Of a DNA stretch of 64,000 nucleotides, positions 3,461-59,623 are shown in pieces. This stretch comes from a bacterium. Its GTDB lineage: Bacteria; Patescibacteriota; Minisyncoccia; Phycocordibacterales; GWA1-40-21. The stretch is from contig JBAXQJ010000004.1 of assembly GCA_037131755.1 (NCBI GenBank), positions 1,094-65,093 on the forward strand. The letters run 5' to 3'. A program made the translations under genes and the position numbers. Numbering within the stretch: the first letter of the stretch is position 1; the number at the start of each line of letters is the position of its first letter. The notes beneath the pieces are model-generated. The model was not told the DNA's origin, searched no databases, and saw only the letters and a list, made by a program, of their open reading frames with translations.

Positions 3461-5725
3461 TTAGATCTTTTTGTTAAATAAACTATTTATCAATCCTCTT
3501 TTTCTCTGCATATACTTATCTAGCAATTGTTGTCTTAACTCCGCTTCACGCTTTACAGCTTCAAGTATGCTCGCTATTTCTTTTTGTTCATCTTCAGATG
3601 TGGGCAAATACAAGCTTTTTGACAAAAATTTTGTATTTGAAATATTGATAGTATTTTTTGCACCTTTTGATACTATGGTTTGTAGGTAATTATTTGTATT
3701 AATATTAGATTCAAAATACGCATCCAATATTACTCCTATAAAGTAATTTTTCGGCTCAAAAACTCCATACAAAGGAGAAACGATAGCATCCGTAGTAATT
3801 TTGCTTTGTTTAATTATACCGTAAGGGAAATCTCCTGTTGGACTCTTTGTATATATAATATCTCCAGGTCTAACAAGTTTATATTTTGAAGTGTCTTTTG
3901 CTGAATATGATCTGCCCAAATGCTCTATTTGGTTTACGACTCCCTTTTTTACAGATACAGAATGAACCTCTTCTTTTCCTGTGCTGAACAACTTATGTTC
4001 AGTTAAAACATCGCTAAGAAGAGTGTCCTTCCATTTATCCTTAGTAACTTGGCGCTTAGTTAAATCCAGGATACTAGCTTTGTATTTCTTTAGCTCCTCC
4101 TCAATAGAGTTTATTTCATTTTCTAAAGCTTCCAAGTCAACATCGATCTCTTTTTTAGAGGTGTCAACATAGCGCCTAATATCTAAATTAAAATCATTCT
4201 CAATAATTTTATTAAGAGATACTATTTCTGAATAATTTTTTATTGACTCAAATGACTCAAATGTATTAATAATTTTTTTTATATCTGATACACGCAATCT
4301 ATTTTGTTTTTTATCAATCTCAAAACCTTCCTCTGCACTTATTATCAAAATCTTATTCTTTTTTTCGGGAGATTTATTTTTGTTGAGAATAACAATTACA
4401 GCCGGAATTTTTGTTCCATAAAATAACTTTTGTGGCAATGATATAATTCCTTCTATGAGATCATTATTTAGAATAGCCTCCCTAATTTTTCCCTCAGAAC
4501 CGCCACGAAATAATACTCCATGTGGCAAAACAATTCCTGCACGACCATTTTCATTCATAGACTTAATTATATGCAAGATGAAAGCAAAGTCCGCATTTTT
4601 ATCTGGTGGCATTTCATATCCAGCTAGTCTGCCATATTTATTTGTTTTAAATACTTCCCACTCCCAATCTTTAATCGAATAGGGAGGATTTGCAACTACT
4701 ATATCAAAGCTCTGTAGCCCACCATGTTGGTTTAAAAATTGAGGATTAGCCAAGGTGTCGCCTCGACGAATATCAGCACTATCAAGACCATGAAGGAACA
4801 TATTTATACGAGCAATTGCAAAAGTACTTAAATTTACCTCCTGGCCATAGAGATATAAGGTTTTTGCTATTTTTTCACCAGATTTATTTTTTAGATAATC
4901 ATATGCCTCAAGCAAAAACCCACCCGAACCGACTGTTGGGTCGTATATGTGATCTTTCTGGTGTGGCTTTAATATGCCAATAATAACTTTTTCAACTTCT
5001 CTCGGAGTGTAAAATTCACCACCTTTTTTTCCTGCATCTGCTGCAAATTGTTTTATTAGGTATTCATAAGCATCACCAAGCAAATCTGAGCTGATATAGT
5101 TACTTCCAAAATTATATTGCGAAAAATGATTAATAAGTTTCTGCAGAGTTTCGTTTGGAAAGCGATCCTTGTTAGCAAAATCAAGATCGTCAAAAATTTT
5201 GTCGAGTTTAGGACTATTGGCATTGGTTAGCTTTTCAAAAATCTCATTTAGCTTTTGACCGATACCATCAGCTTGTTCTGTGATTACAGTCCAACGACAA
5301 TCTTTAGGAACTTGGAAACGATGATTGTAGTCAGCACGGGCTATATCTTCATTATTATATTCGTCCATTACTTTCTGATATTCTTCATCCCAAACATCGC
5401 TGATACGTTTATAAAACAACAATCCAAAGATATATTTTTTATAATCCGAGCTGTCAATTTTGCCACGCAAGATGTCAGCACTTTTCCAAAGCATTGCCTC
5501 GAGTTGGGGTAGTGTAAGTTGACTACCCATTTTATCAACGATGGCTTCAATGTCTTGTGGGCGATATTTGCGATCACCACGTTTTCCAGCTCTAAGTGGA
5601 ACCAAAATTCCATCCTTTTCCCAATTACGAAGAGTGTCTTGATGAATTGAGAAAATTTCAGCTACCTGACTAATAGAAAGAAGCTCTGGCATGCCTTTTA
5701 ATTTTTCTTGTATGTCTTTGCGCAT
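3461..5725 (-). CDS. hsdM: Type I R-M methyltransferase fused to a single HsdS target-recognition domain, with N-terminal MerR/Xis-like HTH
   Basis: 754 aa. N-terminal LSISQVAEIFSIHQDTLRNWEKDGILVPLR helix-turn-helix; HsdM N-domain (LWKSADILRG...LLFYKRISD); N6-adenine MTase motif VVANPPYS; C-terminal about 230 aa resemble an HsdS TRD plus conserved helix (LVRPGDIIYT...ISNTKFLSKSLYLPTSEDEQKEIASILEAV). Confidence 0.75.
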   Translation of the reverse strand: MRKDIQEKLKGMPELLSISQVAEIFSIHQDTLRNWEKDGILVPLRAGKRGDRKYRPQDIEAIVDKMGSQLTLPQLEAMLWKSADILRGKIDSSDYKKYIFGLLFYKRISDVWDEEYQKVMDEYNNEDIARADYNHRFQVPKDCRWTVITEQADGIGQKLNEIFEKLTNANSPKLDKIFDDLDFANKDRFPNETLQKLINHFSQYNFGSNYISSDLLGDAYEYLIKQFAADAGKKGGEFYTPREVEKVIIGILKPHQKDHIYDPTVGSGGFLLEAYDYLKNKSGEKIAKTLYLYGQEVNLSTFAIARINMFLHGLDSADIRRGDTLANPQFLNQHGGLQSFDIVVANPPYSIKDWEWEVFKTNKYGRLAGYEMPPDKNADFAFILHIIKSMNENGRAGIVLPHGVLFRGGSEGKIREAILNNDLIEGIISLPQKLFYGTKIPAVIVILNKNKSPEKKNKILIISAEEGFEIDKKQNRLRVSDIKKIINTFESFESIKNYSEIVSLNKIIENDFNLDIRRYVDTSKKEIDVDLEALENEINSIEEELKKYKASILDLTKRQVTKDKWKDTLLSDVLTEHKLFSTGKEEVHSVSVKKGVVNQIEHLGRSYSAKDTSKYKLVRPGDIIYTKSPTGDFPYGIIKQSKITTDAIVSPLYGVFEPKNYFIGVILDAYFESNINTNNYLQTIVSKGAKNTINISNTKFLSKSLYLPTSEDEQKEIASILEAVKREAELRQQLLDKYMQRKRGLINSLFNKKI

Positions 5726-8655: not shown

Positions 8656-8747
8656 TGGCGGAGACGGCGAGATTCGAACTCGCGGAGCCCTATAAGAGGC
8701 TCACCTCTTTAGCAAAGAGGCACATTAGACCACTCTGACACGTCTCC
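8656..8747 (-). tRNA. tRNA-Ser (anticodon GCU), CCA encoded
   Basis: Manual fold of GGAGACGTGTCAGAGTGGTCTAATGTGCCTCTTTGCTAAAGAGGTGAGCCTCTTATAGGGCTCCGCGAGTTCGAATCTCGCCGTCTCCGCCA: 7-bp acceptor, anticodon loop TTGCTAA, long variable arm, TTCGAAT T-loop. Confidence 0.8.
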
Positions 8748-14288: not shown

Positions 14289-14361
14289 GCGCGTGTAGCT
14301 CAGTTGGTAGAGCGGTCGTCTTATACACGACTGGTCCCAGGTTCGAATCCTGGCACGCGCA
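14289..14361 (+). tRNA. tRNA-Ile (anticodon UAU)
   Basis: Manual cloverleaf of GCGCGTGTAGCTCAGTTGGTAGAGCGGTCGTCTTATACACGACTGGTCCCAGGTTCGAATCCTGGCACGCGCA: perfect 7-bp acceptor, 5-bp anticodon stem GTCGT/ACGAC, loop CTTATAC (U33, anticodon TAT, A37), discriminator A, no encoded CCA. Confidence 0.75.
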
Positions 14362-14476
14362 CAAACTAAAGCCGGGTTTTCATCAGATGAAAACCCGGCT
14401 GAGTATTTTATATGATTGGTCGCCAAGGTCTCACCTTTCCCGTCGCCGACTCCTCCCCAAGGAGAGACCTTGTCGC

Positions 14477-17055: not shown

Positions 17056-17473
17056 GGGGATGCATGTTTTGACAAAAAACCAAACCCTTTCGTGCAAAGC
17101 AGAGCTCCAACAACTCTTTAAAAGGTTGGAAATTGTAATTGCAAACACATTAGTTGCAAAGGCAAAGTCTCTTGTTTCTCCATATTTTGGAGTACAGGAT
17201 CTTGCTTTCGCCTACGTTGCTTAATCTTTTTAGATTAGCCTAGGCGGCGTCTCTCTCGCCTATTTCGCGGAGACGGGACGAGGCGTAATATACGCGAATA
17301 TATTTTGCAGTAGTCTCGACTGCAAACCGAGAACAAGAGAATCGGCTTATGATCATTTTTCTGATTTTGAAATCATAAGCTAAAATCCGTCACAAGACGG
17401 GACTAAATCAGATACGCTTTGTAGACTCGTCTGTGTTAATTTTTTGGACGCGGTTTCAATACCGCCATCTCCA
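17056..17473 (+). ncRNA. ssrA: putative tmRNA (SsrA)
   Basis: Begins GGGGATGCATGTTTTGAC (tmRNA-like 5' end) downstream of smpB. The 3' end CATCTCC-A can pair with 5' GGGGATG (one G-U) to form a tRNA-like acceptor, preceded by a T-arm-like GCGGTTTCAATACCGC. An internal ORF ends ...DLAFAYVA-TAA at 17222-17224. Not covariance-model verified. Confidence 0.5.
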
Positions 17474-17712
17474 CACTTTCAAAAATCCGCTCATTCTGAT
17501 GGGCGATTTTTGTTGTGTGGATATGAGCAAGCAAACTGCTTTGCTTGCGGGCGGTATTGAAAAGATTGGCGCTGTTTTGTCGGCAAAACCGCCAATCACG
17601 CGCCGTGGGCGGCAATTACCGCCATGTTTCTCAAACCCATTGACGAAACAACTGGAATGTGATAATTTTTTGACTGGAGTTTAAACCAAAAAAGTTAGAG
17701 AGGAATTGATAA

Positions 17713-32410: not shown

Positions 32411-32603
32411 AAGAGCGAGCCTTTGCCGCTTGGAAAATTCTCTAAGGCAAAGCGAGTTATTGCTTTTTGCGGGTTAGCGGAGCCAGCTTAGAAAATTAAA
32501 GAATTTTTTAGAAAAATCAAACTGTTTGAGGAATATTCTGATATGACGAGTTTTTGATTTTTCGTTAAGAAAAATGACTTAATTTTCAAGCTGGCGCAGC
32601 GCT
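32411..32603. repeat. MITE/ERIC-like intergenic repeat, copy 1
   Basis: About 135-bp core (gcgggttagcggagccagcttagaaaattaaag ... gatatgacgagtttttgatttttcg ... ttaattttcaagctggcgcagcgc) is more than 85% identical to 44892-45025; internal terminal inverted repeats ccagcttagaaaattaa / ttaattttcaagctgg. Confidence 0.7.
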
Positions 32604-37013: not shown

Positions 37014-37049
37014 CCAATCTACTTTCTACTAACTACAATCTACTTTTTA
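37014..37049 (-). promoter_or_regulatory. GTAGATTGTAG-family motif between rpsS and rplV
   Basis: Minus-strand reading gtagattgtagttagtagaaagtagattgg; homologous to 62751-62788, 16981-17005 and 45541-45600. Confidence 0.35.
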
Positions 37050-37381
37050 GTTTCGACAGTGGCTTTAGCAGACTGAGCGGCTGAGATTTCAGCTTCTTTC
37101 TTCTTGATATCCAATTCTTTCTGCATCTTACCACCATGGCGATGGAATTTCCTGGTTGGAGAAAATTCGCCCAATCGATGGCCAACCATATCTTCGGTCA
37201 CCAAAACTTCGATGTGCTCTCGGCCATTGTAAACGCCAAAATTGAATCCCACCATTTCTGGAGCGATTTGGCAGCGTCGGACCCAAGTCTTAATAACACC
37301 GGTTTCAATCGGCTTTTTCCCTTCTATCTTTTTTAGAAGTCTTTCGTCAACGTATGGTCCTTTTTTAATTGATCTTGCCAC
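37040..37381 (-). CDS. rpsS: 30S ribosomal protein S19
   Basis: [19 protein letters not shown]... matches S19 with a C-terminal extension. Confidence 0.9.
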
Positions 37382-37654
37382 GGTATTAAAATTAAAGATT
37401 AAAAATCAAAACGTAAAATATTGAGTCCGCCCAAGCGAACAAATATCCTGAATTCCTCTCATCTGTAGACAGACAAAACGATCCAGAATCCATCTTCGTA
37501 ACTCTTAGCGTTAAAAAAACAGAGCTCTTTCAAGCTCCGAGTATATTAGCAGAGGACGATTCAGAAGTCAAGCAAAATAAAAGCGGTATTTATCTCGGAG
37601 CGAGGTACCTGCCCATAAGGAGCTCGACCACATCTCGTCCTACGTTGCCGATAA

Positions 37655-37684
37655 CAAAAACAACCCCCGAAGGGGTTGTTTTTG
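37655..37684. terminator. strong bidirectional intrinsic terminator hairpin inside the rplB-rpsS spacer
   Basis: caaaaacaacccc-cgaa-ggggttgtttttg, 13-bp stem with U-runs readable on both strands. Confidence 0.55.
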
Positions 37685-37791
37685 CTTAAAAATAAAAGCG
37701 GTATGAACCCTTATATTGCCTTCCTCGGCTCGGAAATGGAAAAGATTACTTTTTCATTTCGCTCGCTCTACGTCGGCAATAAGTTTTGAAA

Positions 37792-38643
37792 TTACTTCTC
37801 GTCCTTATTCTTTCCAACCTTTCGGCGGGAAACTATCAGATAATTGGAGTATTTCTTAGGAGTTCGTGACTTCTGACCCTTACCGACATGTCGGCCGGTC
37901 GCCGTCTTGGCATAACGCAAACCTCTACCCTGTCGCTGTTCACCTCCACCGTATGGGTGATCGACTGGGTTCATCACTGAGGCTCTCACGGTTGGCCTGA
38001 TACCTAACCAGCGAGAACGACCAGCTTTACCAATGTTCACCAATTTATTTTCATTGTTTGAAACTTCACCAACGCAAGCATAACAGCTTTCTGGGACCTT
38101 TCGGACTTCAGTTGAAGGCAGTTTCAGGTGGGTATAACCGGCATCGTTTGCAATGACCTGGACGAAGTTTCCTCCGGCTCGGCCAAGCTTGCCACCGTTT
38201 CCCGGCTTGAGCTCGACATTGTAAACAAAGGTACCGACACCGATCTTTTTGAGCGGCAAACGGTTACCAGGCTTGATTTCAGCATTTTCTGAGACGATGA
38301 AAGTATCTCCGACTTTGACTGATTTTGGCAAGACGACATAGCGTTTCTCGCCATCAGCATAAACCGCTAGGCCGATAAAGGCTGTTCGGTTTGGATCGTA
38401 CTCGACAGAGACGATCTTGGCTGGCACGTCGAACTTATCGTAAGTGAAATCCACTTCGCGCATCAAGCGCTTGTGTCCGCCACCTCGGCATTTCATCGTG
38501 ACGCGACCGTAATTGTTACGGCCAACGCTTCGCTTTCGTCCGAAAGTGAGGGCTTTGAGCGGTTCGTTGGTGGTGATCACCTGTCGGTAATCAATACCGG
38601 TCATCTGTCGTCGACTTGGACTTGTAGGATTGTATCTTTTCAT
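37792..38643 (-). CDS. rplB: 50S ribosomal protein L2
   Basis: 283 aa; matches L2. Confidence 0.9.
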   Translation of the reverse strand: MKRYNPTSPSRRQMTGIDYRQVITTNEPLKALTFGRKRSVGRNNYGRVTMKCRGGGHKRLMREVDFTYDKFDVPAKIVSVEYDPNRTAFIGLAVYADGEKRYVVLPKSVKVGDTFIVSENAEIKPGNRLPLKKIGVGTFVYNVELKPGNGGKLGRAGGNFVQVIANDAGYTHLKLPSTEVRKVPESCYACVGEVSNNENKLVNIGKAGRSRWLGIRPTVRASVMNPVDHPYGGGEQRQGRGLRYAKTATGRHVGKGQKSRTPKKYSNYLIVSRRKVGKNKDEK

Positions 38644-39019: not shown

Positions 39020-39146
39020 TAATGTATTTCTGGTAATTAGGGCGAGTTATTGTCTTTTTAGAGACTAGCGAGCGCGACGGCGCAAGCTCGAGGAAAAATT
39101 TAGCAAAATTTTATCCGTGCTCTAAAAAGATAATAACGAGCGACTT

Positions 39147-40883: not shown

Positions 40884-40884
40884 A

Positions 40885-40916
40885 TTTAGCTTATTAGCTT
40901 TTTAGCTTATTAGCTT
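40885..40916. repeat. 16-bp tandem direct repeat tttagcttattagctt x2 immediately upstream of rpsJ
   Basis: Perfect tandem duplication in the promoter/leader region. Confidence 0.5.
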
Positions 40917-41043
40917 GTGGCCTCTTAGGCGGATTTTTATGTCCGGCCTAAAAAGCCAAGAAGCTACTTCCCTAAAAGCTGCAGAAACCCGATCCGACGA
41001 GGGACGTACCTCTTCTGGACCAGTTTCCGCTATTTAATATTTA

Positions 41044-42237
<1,194 letters not shown>

Positions 42238-42563
42238 ATTTTTATGGGCCGACTTTACTTGCTTAAGCGGAGCGCGCGAGAACGTTGGCTCTGCCTATTC
42301 AACTAAAGCGACTAAAAATTATTTTGCCTTCCATTTTACAATGGAGAGCGATTAATAAATCGACTTATAATGGTGTAAATTAATTTACACAGCGAAATCC
42401 GCCCGCTCGAACATATACCAGTTCATCAGCGAGAAAATTACGGTTTGGTAATATTAACAAATTAAGAAAAAATGTCAAATACAGCGCTTCGGCCCTGGTC
42501 AGGCAGTCTCCTCCCCCGCCCACGATTATCATAGAAAGGTTCGAACTGGGTAATTTAATAAAC

Positions 42564-42600
42564 AAAATAGCGGGTTTGGCTACGCCAAACCCGCTATTTT
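42564..42600 (-). terminator. rho-independent terminator downstream of fusA
   Basis: aaaatagcgggtttggc-tac-gccaaacccgctatttt, 17-bp stem with U-run on the minus strand. Confidence 0.55.
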
Positions 42601-42615
42601 AAAATTATAAAATCT

Positions 42616-44757: not shown

Positions 44758-44837
44758 ATAATAAAATTGTTAATATAAATAAAACCAGGTTTAATTGGTG
44801 ACTGTAGGATACATTAAAAATAAGTAAAAAGCAAACA

Positions 44838-44866
44838 AATAACCGTCCGAGGACGGTTATTTGTTA
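44838..44866. other. stem-loop between rpsG and fusA (possible attenuator/terminator)
   Basis: aaataaccgtc-cgag-gacggttattt. Confidence 0.4.
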
Positions 44867-44870
44867 AGAC

Positions 44871-45053
44871 GAGAGCGAGGTTTCTTGTTTTACGTGTTAG
44901 CGGAGCTGGTTTAGGAAATCAACGAGCTTTTTAGAAAAATCAAACTGTTTGAGGAATATTCTGATATGACGAGTTTTTGATTTTTCGTGAAGAAAAGCGA
45001 CTTGATTTTCAAACTGGCGCAGCGCGGAAAGCAAAACAAGAAACCGAGCGTCC
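44871..45053. repeat. MITE/ERIC-like intergenic repeat, copy 2 (flanked by 13-bp inverted repeats ggtttcttgtttt / aaaacaagaaacc)
   Basis: Core 44892-45025 aligns base-for-base with 32469-32602, including gatatgacgagtttttgatttttcg and ctggcgcagcgc. Confidence 0.7.
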
Positions 45054-45054
45054 T

Positions 45055-47275: not shown

Positions 47276-47290
47276 GATAAGATTCAAACA

Positions 47291-47330
47291 AAACAGGCGG
47301 GTCGCTTCGCGACCCGCCTGTTTTGTTTTT
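47291..47330 (+). terminator. rho-independent terminator after rpmB
   Basis: aaacaggcgggtcgc-ttc-gcgacccgcctgttt followed by TGTTTTT. Confidence 0.7.
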
Positions 47331-59269: not shown

Positions 59270-59453
59270 TTATCTTATTATACAAAAAAACCCAGAACTA
59301 AGCGAGGGCAAGAGTAGCTTCTTAGCTGGTAGCTTGTAGGAAGATAATTTTAATACATTATGAGTCTGTTCATTTTGCGTGTTAACGGAGCCGGCTTAGA
59401 AAATTAAAGAGGTTTTTAATAAAACAAAGCATTAGATACACCGTTCTCAATTA

Positions 59454-59623
59454 AGCGAGTATTTGGGTTTTTGCGAGTTAGCGTAGTGATAGTTAAAAAT
59501 CAAGATAATTTTTAGAAAAATTCATCTGTCTGACGAGTCTGCGAGGAGTTATGAATTTTTTGTAAAGAAAATTATCTATGATTTTTCTATCACGAAGCGC
59601 TTTAGCAAAAACCCAAATACGAG
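59454..59623. repeat. MITE/ERIC-like repeat, diverged copy 3, bounded by 17-bp terminal inverted repeats
   Basis: cgagtatttgggttttt ... aaaaacccaaatacgag flank a core related to copies 1 and 2 (ttgcgagttagcg..., tttttagaaaaat, ctgacgag). A further partial copy (gcgtgttaacggagccggcttagaaaattaaag) lies at 59377-59409. Confidence 0.55.

Follow-up and report, generated by a model that had tools for sequence, protein, structure and literature searches.

In Escherichia coli the S10-spc-alpha cluster of ribosomal protein (r-protein) genes is made up of three operons. The attenuator of the E. coli S10 leader is promoter-proximal and controlled by L4, and 5'-terminal stem-loops act as mRNA stabilisers in the ompA leader of E. 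coli and in the aprE leader of Bacillus subtilis. Parts reminiscent of these systems are found in one spacer of the DNA analyzed here, a 64-kb window (64,000 nt of contig JBAXQJ010000004.1) from a bacterium placed by L2 searches in the Patescibacteria, class Paceibacteria, near Candidatus Taylorbacteria. The spacer separates rplB, encoding r-protein L2, from rpsS, encoding S19, and is probably a boundary between two transcription units of the r-protein cluster, not a block inside one operon. As at the internal promoters of S10-spc-alpha, a canonical sigma-70 -35/extended -10 promoter would restart transcription within a conserved gene order; the break differs in falling at the rplB|rpsS junction, inside the S10 operon of E. 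coli, and in being kept in one Paceibacteria subclade only. As in the ompA and aprE stabilisers and in promoter-proximal attenuators, a short hairpin, conserved via compensatory changes, lies a few nucleotides from the predicted 5' end and is followed by a U-rich tract; it differs from the described leaders, to which it has no sequence or Rfam relation, because made up by 5-8 bp only, and because lost in the closest relatives. The parts of the spacer (bidirectional intrinsic terminator, sigma-70 extended -10 promoter, 5' stem-loop, palindromic repeats) are all of known kind, and none is of a described family. Unusual are the S10 split at rplB|rpsS, kept in a Paceibacteria subclade and accompanied by an insertion hotspot, the small conserved hairpin, and the deep conservation of one of the repeats, element X. 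Searches of the literature turned up neither this split of the operon nor these elements. The observations set out below are sequence features, conservation, covariation, and presence or absence across relatives.

The genes of the locus lie on the minus strand and run from right to left. rplB (283 amino acids, aa; called from the list of open reading frames, ORFs, and from Pfam domains L2_N and L2_C on the identical public gene) spans positions 37792-38643, rpsS (113 aa, GTG start) positions 37040-37381, and 410 nt (37382-37791) separate the two. The exact length and the lack of a credible ORF match what had been noticed in an earlier, sequence-only reading of the window, whose description of the layout stands once the direction of the genes is corrected. 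The same reading took L2 and S19 genes to be normally adjacent or overlapping, and their approximate distance indeed ranges from -12 to 177 nt in 64 genomes outside the candidate phyla radiation (CPR), and is 54 nt in the closest relatives. ORFs of at least 50 aa are missing in the spacer, and three ORFs of 33-47 aa had no match in Pfam. Neither a trace of a decayed gene nor likeness to the genes found at this junction in relatives emerged from tblastx comparisons of the spacer with every fetched locus; both this search and the Pfam search on the small ORFs being empty, a decayed cargo gene was rejected. ARAGORN detected no tRNA or tmRNA in the spacer. Rfam families were not matched by the spacer at gathering thresholds (cmscan), and at relaxed E-value thresholds the best scores were 12.8-19.4 bits, to be compared with cut-offs of 40-94 bits (E >= 0.22); the small RNA or r-protein leader earlier proposed for the region thus corresponds to no family known to Rfam. 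The spacer as a whole folds with a z-score of -7.3 to -7.8, yet exceptional structure was dropped as a distinguishing feature, many intergenic regions of this genome having z-scores of -4 to -10.

The upstream side of the boundary is marked by T1, a hairpin resembling intrinsic terminators (37653-37686, minus strand) which sits 105 nt past the rplB stop. T1 is built on a perfect inverted repeat (37655-37667 and 37672-37684; 13 nt, 100% complementary, 4-nt loop), which is unique in the 64-kb window and has 0 matches in shuffled sequences. The sense strand forms 15 bp (37686-37653) closed by a C(UUCG)G loop (-22.9 kcal/mol, z = -5.6), the antisense strand 13 bp (-19.5 kcal/mol), and the G+C core is flanked by A-runs and T-runs on both strands, which bears out the bidirectional form, with a 13-bp stem and U-runs on both strands, earlier ascribed to the hairpin. 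The A-run lies at the 5' side, and the U-run at the 3' side, after the G+C core, reads UUGUUUUUGUUAU. By its form T1 is predicted to be a strong bidirectional intrinsic terminator. It shares with terminators of this type the G+C-rich perfect stem, the stable UUCG tetraloop, the A-run upstream and a U-run following the G+C core, and the location after a stop codon. It differs from them because the U-run is interrupted and largely paired with the A-run, and because set between rplB and rpsS, which most bacteria co-transcribe as nearly adjacent genes. The same build (A-run, G+C stem, U-run) is found in the window in hairpins after fusA (42601-42563), after rpsG (44865-44834), and between convergent genes (47286-47328). 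Among relatives, a hairpin with A-tract, G+C stem and U-tract follows the rplB stop within ~60 nt in 13 of the 23 loci folded (L002, L003, L004, L005, L007, L013, L081, L082, L085, L087, L091, L173 and L174), and most relatives having a long gap carry a terminator hairpin just after rplB.

The downstream side of the boundary is marked by a promoter (37543-37571, minus strand), located 75 nt downstream of T1. It consists of a -35 hexamer TTGACT (37571-37566), a 17-nt spacer, and an extended -10 TGcTAATAT (37551-37543), with TG at -15/-14; the hexamers are of the sigma-70 type, their spacing is within 17±1, and the site resembles other canonical TTGACN-N16-18-TAnnnT sites of the window. In at least 16 relatives (L001, L164-L173, L003-L006, L009, L013, L081, L082, L086), whose L2 proteins are 61-86% identical to that of the window, rpsS is immediately preceded by the motif TTGAC(T/A)-N16/17-TGnTAnnAT. 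Since the promoter is conserved in the clade, rpsS most likely begins its own transcription unit. In the sequence-only reading, a terminator located within the S10 operon had to be subject to read-through or attenuation; with the conserved sigma-70 promoter close downstream, rpsS would not depend on read-through past T1. rpsS is thus placed as first gene of a downstream unit continuing with rplV, rpsC, rplP and onward. A promoter precedes tuf in the relative L004, in which no comparable break was noted between tuf and rplB, a stretch not scanned for terminators; hence the upstream unit is probably tuf-rpsJ-rplC-rplD-rplW-rplB, with rplB (its L2 83-86% identical to Taylorbacteria-like L2) as last gene.

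The rplB|rpsS junction varies widely in the loci compared, all of which were fetched through L2, so that the sample is biased. Near-identical strains of the species (L161-L163, from three public datasets) differ by 0.10-0.16% around the locus, and have an identical 410-nt spacer. The next relatives, five distinct genomes with L2 83-86% identical, all have a spacer of 54 nt, made up by the promoter (TTGACT-N16-TGnTA(G/A)TAT), which starts from the first base after the rplB stop, and by an A/U-rich leader of ~25 nt, followed by the rpsS ATG. The spacer of the window is therefore ~356 nt longer than in its nearest relatives. Relatives sharing it along with a protein-coding gene missed here, as had been envisaged, were not encountered; relatives lack this spacer, and no homologue of the spacer as a whole was found by blastn-short among all fetched loci. 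Moving away from the window, the gap measures 83 nt at 79% L2 identity, 1040 nt with no gene called at 76%, 132-1104 nt at ~69%, and up to 2067 nt at 65%; deeper CPR lineages have gaps of 1-24 nt and no promoter. Long gaps often hold unrelated cargo, including MazE/MazF (L010), a DagK-type kinase (L013), a fragment of an N6-methylase (L086), a MerR regulator encoded on the opposite strand (L176), and family-less ORFs (L003, L008, L081 and L174). Gaps ranging from 54 to 2067 nt and filled with unrelated cargo identify rplB|rpsS as an insertion hotspot in the clade, and a junction which is already a break between units would tolerate insertions. The 1040-nt island of L173 (3356-4395; L2 76% identical) carries three perfect bidirectional terminator hairpins of 18-24 bp, one copy of element X, and two direct repeat units of ~200 nt, each closed by a long-range helix, and ends with the conserved rpsS promoter and its hairpin; Rfam gave nothing credible on this island.

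Immediately past the promoter of the window lies a hairpin (37539-37520, minus strand; CGGAGCUU-GAAA-GAGCUCUG, 8 bp, -10.8 kcal/mol), with U7 (37519-37513) after it. The conserved AGCUY core of the hairpin begins 6 nt past the -10 hexamer, at what is predicted to be the extreme 5' end of the rpsS transcript. An AGCUC-loop-GAGCU hairpin with a T-rich tail is present in nine relatives (L003, L004, L005, L006, L013, L081, L082, L086 and L173), and in these and the window, 10 genomes in all, the 5' arm starts 6-10 nt past the -10. Core pairs were counted by script, as MAFFT misaligned the arms owing to the differing loop lengths, and are all standard (50/50). Two pairs show compensatory double changes (A-U to C-G in L006, U-A to C-G in L086), two more show wobble changes, and the 10 nt after the hairpin include 6-8 T; shuffling gives a combined p of 1.5e-6. 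The loops, 3 to 6 nt long, differ in sequence too, and a variable loop length favours an RNA hairpin over a dimeric operator. In L082, L173, L013 and L081 the T-rich tract leads straight into the rpsS ATG, which favours a 5'-terminal stabilising stem-loop joined to an A/U-rich translation-start region. The 83-86% group has no hairpin, and the comparison of its TAGTAT|AACGCT with TAATAT|hairpin+U7|AACGCT of the window suggests a clean deletion of hairpin and U7; the window would keep the older arrangement, the nearest relatives having been compacted. A hairpin and U-run also follow the tuf promoters of L003, L004, L005 and L011. The hairpin may be a stabiliser, an attenuator or both, and a regulatory role is possible.

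The rest of the region ahead of rpsS (37382-37512, minus strand) is a lineage-specific leader extension of ~105-130 nt, in a place where relatives have 0-60 nt. It contains hairpins at 37489-37445 and 37440-37425, and a 33-codon upstream ORF (uORF; 37493-37392, sense strand), which stops 10 nt ahead of the rpsS GTG. The leader taken alone has an unexceptional fold (z = -1.9). Within the 155-nt leader, conservation is limited to the 5-bp core hairpin, and what remains is species-specific.

Put together, transcripts starting upstream of tuf would end past rplB at the predicted T1 (37686-37653), and RNA polymerase would restart 75 nt on, at the extended -10 promoter (37571-37543), with a predicted start at ~37537. 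The new transcript would open with the stem-loop at 37539-37513, whose putative role is to protect or tune rpsS mRNA, followed by an A/U-rich region suited to ribosome loading; 130 nt of extra leader would then lead into rpsS, translated from its GTG in an A/U-rich context. X, its putative remnant X' and the leader hairpins would be lineage-specific palindromic padding. Several observations weigh against this arrangement. Termination at T1 and initiation at ~37537 are predictions. T1, most of whose U-run is inside the stem, was missed by the consensus terminator scan, which requires 5 T past the complete stem; the scan did list hairpins of the same style at convergent gene ends. The promoter matches the consensus at 9 of 12 positions only. 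The hairpin and U7 right after the start have the form of a terminator which, if efficient, would silence ~20 essential genes. Strains of the species are so similar as to give no power to test constraint on the spacer. The exact duplication of the 16-nt repeat R is not accounted for, nor does describing X as padding explain why its core reaches 80% identity with a copy from a genome in which L2 is only 60% identical, a degree of conservation pointing to selection or recent transfer.

The start of rpsS deserves a comment. The N-terminus of rpsS as called here aligns codon for codon with the product of the ATG start of relatives. Public gene calls shorten the protein to 71 aa from an internal ATG (L161 4389-4604, L162 1983-2198), so that the full 113-aa product is absent from the record; the gene is likely miscalled because its true start is a GTG lacking a Shine-Dalgarno sequence. 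By eye, no Shine-Dalgarno-like purine run is visible at the starts of rpsS (37381), rplV (36990), rpsC (36564), tuf (42237) and rpsJ (40883), and the leaders of all five of these highly expressed genes are A/U-rich. rpsS is uncalled also in the NCBI assembly of Taylorbacteria RIFOXYD2_FULL_36_9 (L169 3353-3480). Compared with JGI contigs that are otherwise identical, the next gene is there shifted 53 nt further along, which suggests a fault of assembly or a frameshift in rpsS.

The upstream half of the spacer is occupied by repeats, and reads on the plus strand R-X'-T1-R-X. Most relatives lack a counterpart to the stretch from the rplB stop to T1 (37791-37687), to that from T1 to the promoter (37654-37574), and to the leader extension (37512-37382). 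The 16-mer R, AAAATAAAAGCGGTAT, is found exact at 37689-37704 (plus strand, copy 1, between T1 and X) and at 37574-37589 (plus strand, copy 2), and matches the window only twice at up to 2 mismatches (0.13 matches expected). The duplicated motif had been placed at 37574 and 37690 in the sequence-only reading; the duplication is exact, and the second position was off by one base. The sense-strand sequence of copy 2, ATACCGCTTTTATTTT, stops 2 nt short of the -35, and may act as a T-rich UP-like element. An R-like motif, AAATAAAAGCAGTA, is found ahead of X also in L173.

Element X (37708-37788) is an imperfect palindrome of ~80 nt with ends CTTATATTGCC...GGCAATAAG and a 12-bp central hairpin (37733-37760); it is given on the plus strand according to homology, antisense to the r-protein genes, and on the sense strand makes up most of the rplB 3' untranslated region (UTR). 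Homologues occur in two other Paceibacteria. One lies in the middle of the rplB|rpsS gap of L173 (3771-3850; Smith-Waterman score 40, shuffles mean 23.5, max 33), one in the L4|L23 gap of the same locus (1928-2001), and one in L092, 1.5 kb downstream of rplB (5363-5409; 37/46 identical, score 52, shuffle max 30). All three are in the sense orientation of the r-protein genes; the copy of the window is inverted. In the window, the plus strand is the one favoured by a G-U pair of the central stem (-12.1 vs -8.1 kcal/mol), and a single non-Watson-Crick position favours the opposite strand in L173 (read by eye), so that no transcribed strand can be assigned. In size (~80 nt), imperfect palindromy and inverted ends X recalls the REP/BIME, Correia/NEMIS, RUP, ERIC and MITE-like repeats, as it does in its occurrence, in several genomes and both orientations, in intergenic spacers within operons. 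It differs from them in the very low copy number, in the lack of target-site duplications, and in that all known copies are in, or next to, the S10 cluster. Profile searches of the 64 kb found X and the adjacent X' only, not many dispersed copies; no target-site duplication was seen at the ends of X, and the 16-nt R repeats flank a 99-nt segment made up by T1 and X', not X. In Rfam, the only collection compared, X has no named family. A scan of viral contigs with a pattern of the X core returned 120 stretches, none matching the X profile at E<1; these matches are due to chance.

X' (37590-37654, plus strand) may be a diverged second copy or remnant of X; common to both are the R motif, CTCGG, and the 3' end CTACGTTGCCGATAA. 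X and X' match at 16 of 21 positions, a figure equalled by 18 of 500 shuffles and hence marginal; the first nhmmer model was built from three sequences including X', which makes the hit on X' circular, and a model built without X' missed it at E<=20. The evidence that X' derives from X is weak. The array is consistent with local duplication, with insertion of a small palindromic element, or with an insertion that landed in a repeat. Tandem duplication of a unit of ~115 nt is kept as possible only, the similarity beyond the exact 16-mer being limited to the marginal 16/21 match. An inserted element had been among the earlier suggestions for the region; one part of the spacer, X, behaves as such.

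In L092 the X-like hairpin has beside it (5300-5478) a piece of a DEAD-box helicase C-terminus, in frame (YVHRIGRTGRAGQKGKALTFV), ahead of which are stop codons and two direct copies of GTTTTCTAAAGAAAACAAAGTCGC; the region downstream of rplB looks like a patchwork of gene debris and repeats. X itself adjoins in-frame YVHRIGRTGRAG in L092, but was rejected as a helicase scrap, upstream helicase motifs being absent and stop codons intervening. A relationship of X with Y, an element of the L4|L23 gap of the window, was also rejected, since shared motifs failed in pattern searches.

Alternative explanations of the spacer concern either its origin or additional functions of its parts. Among them, the one retaining most credit, though still rather doubtful, regards the spacer as mostly a scar left by mobile or inserted DNA, with X and X' being MITE/REP-like copies, or R being att-type repeats left after the loss of cargo, with T1 and the promoter as sole functional parts; it departs from the boundary between two units in the origin of the padding only. 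The inverted-repeat ends of X, found in three genomes, in different spacers and both orientations, would fit this origin, as would the exact 16-nt direct repeats around the 99-nt segment, the cargo genes of relatives at this junction, and the spread of a different repeat, Z (87% identity over 154 nt), to three further spacers in the window. On the other hand, the 64 kb hold only two adjacent copies of X, target-site duplications were not found at its ends, no transposase or integrase is nearby, no decayed cargo is traceable at the protein level, and the confinement of all known X copies to the S10 cluster or its side could mean function, although the sampling through L2 is biased. Unlikely, and in any case an addition to the boundary between units rather than a replacement, is that the hairpin and U7 (37539-37513), perhaps together with the long leader, form a regulated attenuator responding to, for example, an r-protein, NusA/NusG or the level of uridine triphosphate, or an r-protein autoregulatory leader, for rpsS and ~20 downstream genes. 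The consensus scan does flag hairpin and U7 as terminator-like, the hairpin is kept with its two compensatory pairs and always with a T-rich tail, hairpins of similar type follow the tuf promoters of relatives, and GAGCTC at 37625-37620 could, as far as sequence tells, pair with the 3' arm in read-through transcripts. Yet the tail which runs into the rpsS ATG in four relatives is better understood as an A/U-rich translation-start region, the stem has 5-8 bp only (-6 to -11 kcal/mol), conservation does not extend to any alternative antiterminator structure, the hairpin is not similar to any Rfam leader, and its complete loss in the closest relatives indicates that it is dispensable.

Less credible still is that the upstream half (X, R, T1 and possibly X') encodes a small RNA, either derived from the 3' UTR of the rplB transcript or antisense to it on the plus strand. 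Both strands of segment 37800-37640 give good folds (z = -5.0 and -5.6), the X core retains 80% identity across a deep divergence, a strong terminator follows X in L173, and the G-U pair mentioned above favours the plus strand in the window. However, very negative z-scores are usual for intergenic regions of this genome, promoter-like sites were not found in the spacer on either strand upstream of X or X', the mismatch in the L4|L23 copy of L173 favours, by eye, the opposite strand, leaving no consistent transcribed strand, the orientation of X relative to neighbouring genes flips between genomes, and no Rfam family corresponds. It is very improbable that a small protein has been missed, the uORF being translated as a leader peptide coupled to the rpsS GTG or as a short hydrophobic peptide. 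The uORF has its ATG 19 nt past U7, about where relatives have the rpsS ATG, its stop is close to the GTG, and the change from ATG to GTG in rpsS occurred in this species only. Against this, the uORF is absent from every relative, has no match in Pfam and no small-protein homologue among 1.84 billion representative proteins searched with phmmer (the only two matches being short stretches inside proteins of 1146 and 3386 aa), and overlaps two hairpins; its hydrophobic C-terminus is what T-rich sequence gives in any frame.

If the boundary between two transcription units is real, a Paceibacteria subclade has cut the very conserved S10 operon in two at rplB|rpsS, and has provided the second half with its own promoter and a conserved 5' hairpin. 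The split would be a marker of the clade, and would account for the accumulation at the junction of accessory genes, such as toxin-antitoxin modules and DagK. It would also offer a small candidate for the control of r-proteins in reduced genomes without known leaders; we know of no r-protein leader in Paceibacteria. Annotators should take into account that rpsS has here a GTG start and no Shine-Dalgarno sequence, and is shortened in public calls. There is a slim chance that X and the hairpin with U-run of rpsS promoters, with its analogues at tuf promoters, belong to an undescribed cis-regulatory system for r-protein synthesis in Paceibacteria, in which the hairpin would act as an attenuator under regulation, or X would be bound by a protein, as RNA or as DNA, at sites linked to spacers of the S10 cluster; neither would then be padding.

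Other spacers of the window have been enlarged, and growth by non-coding insertion is a habit of this genome. Long spacers interrupt the normally compact str operon, and contain perfect hairpins with A-run, G+C stem and U-run. The fusA|tuf spacer (42238-42615) holds the hairpin at 42601-42563 (-28.1 kcal/mol), a promoter TTGACA-16-TGtTAATAT (42478-42451), and a leader of ~200 nt, the same three-part layout of terminator, promoter and leader seen at rplB|rpsS. In the rpsG|fusA spacer (44758-45054) the hairpin at 44865-44834 (-20.3 kcal/mol) is just past the upstream stop. The tuf|rpsJ gap (40884-41043, 160 nt) folds strongly on the sense strand (-64.6 kcal/mol, z = -7.25), ends with the triple repeat AAGCUAAUAAGCUAAAAAGCUAAUAAGCUAAAU, has no Rfam match at gathering thresholds, and may be an S10 leader.

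Element Y (39055-39128, minus strand) is ~75 nt long, lies in the L4|L23 gap (39020-39146), and has the structure AGAGCACGGA-hairpin-CCUCGAGCU-hairpin-CUCGCUAGUCUCU, closed by a 10-bp helix. A homologue is found in L003 (4855-4931; nhmmer E 1e-20) directly after the rplB stop, and its two small hairpins show apparently compensatory changes. L4 and L23 are only ~10-25 nt apart in the closest relatives, which makes Y another lineage-specific insertion. The repeat family Z is represented by two copies of ~150 nt (32451-32602 and 44874-45025; 87% identity over 154 nt, E 1e-49), located in a spacer of the spc-type cluster and in the rpsG|fusA spacer, and by weaker copies in a third spacer (59270-59623), which includes a self-inverted repeat of 174 nt; small ORFs in Z copies are the repeat read in one frame. 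Elsewhere in the window, which contains no rRNA, Rfam and ARAGORN identified a tmRNA (17056-17476, tag AKAKSLVSPYFGVQDLAFAYVA), tRNA-Ile(UAU) at 14289-14362, and tRNA-Ser(GCU) at 8656-8747.

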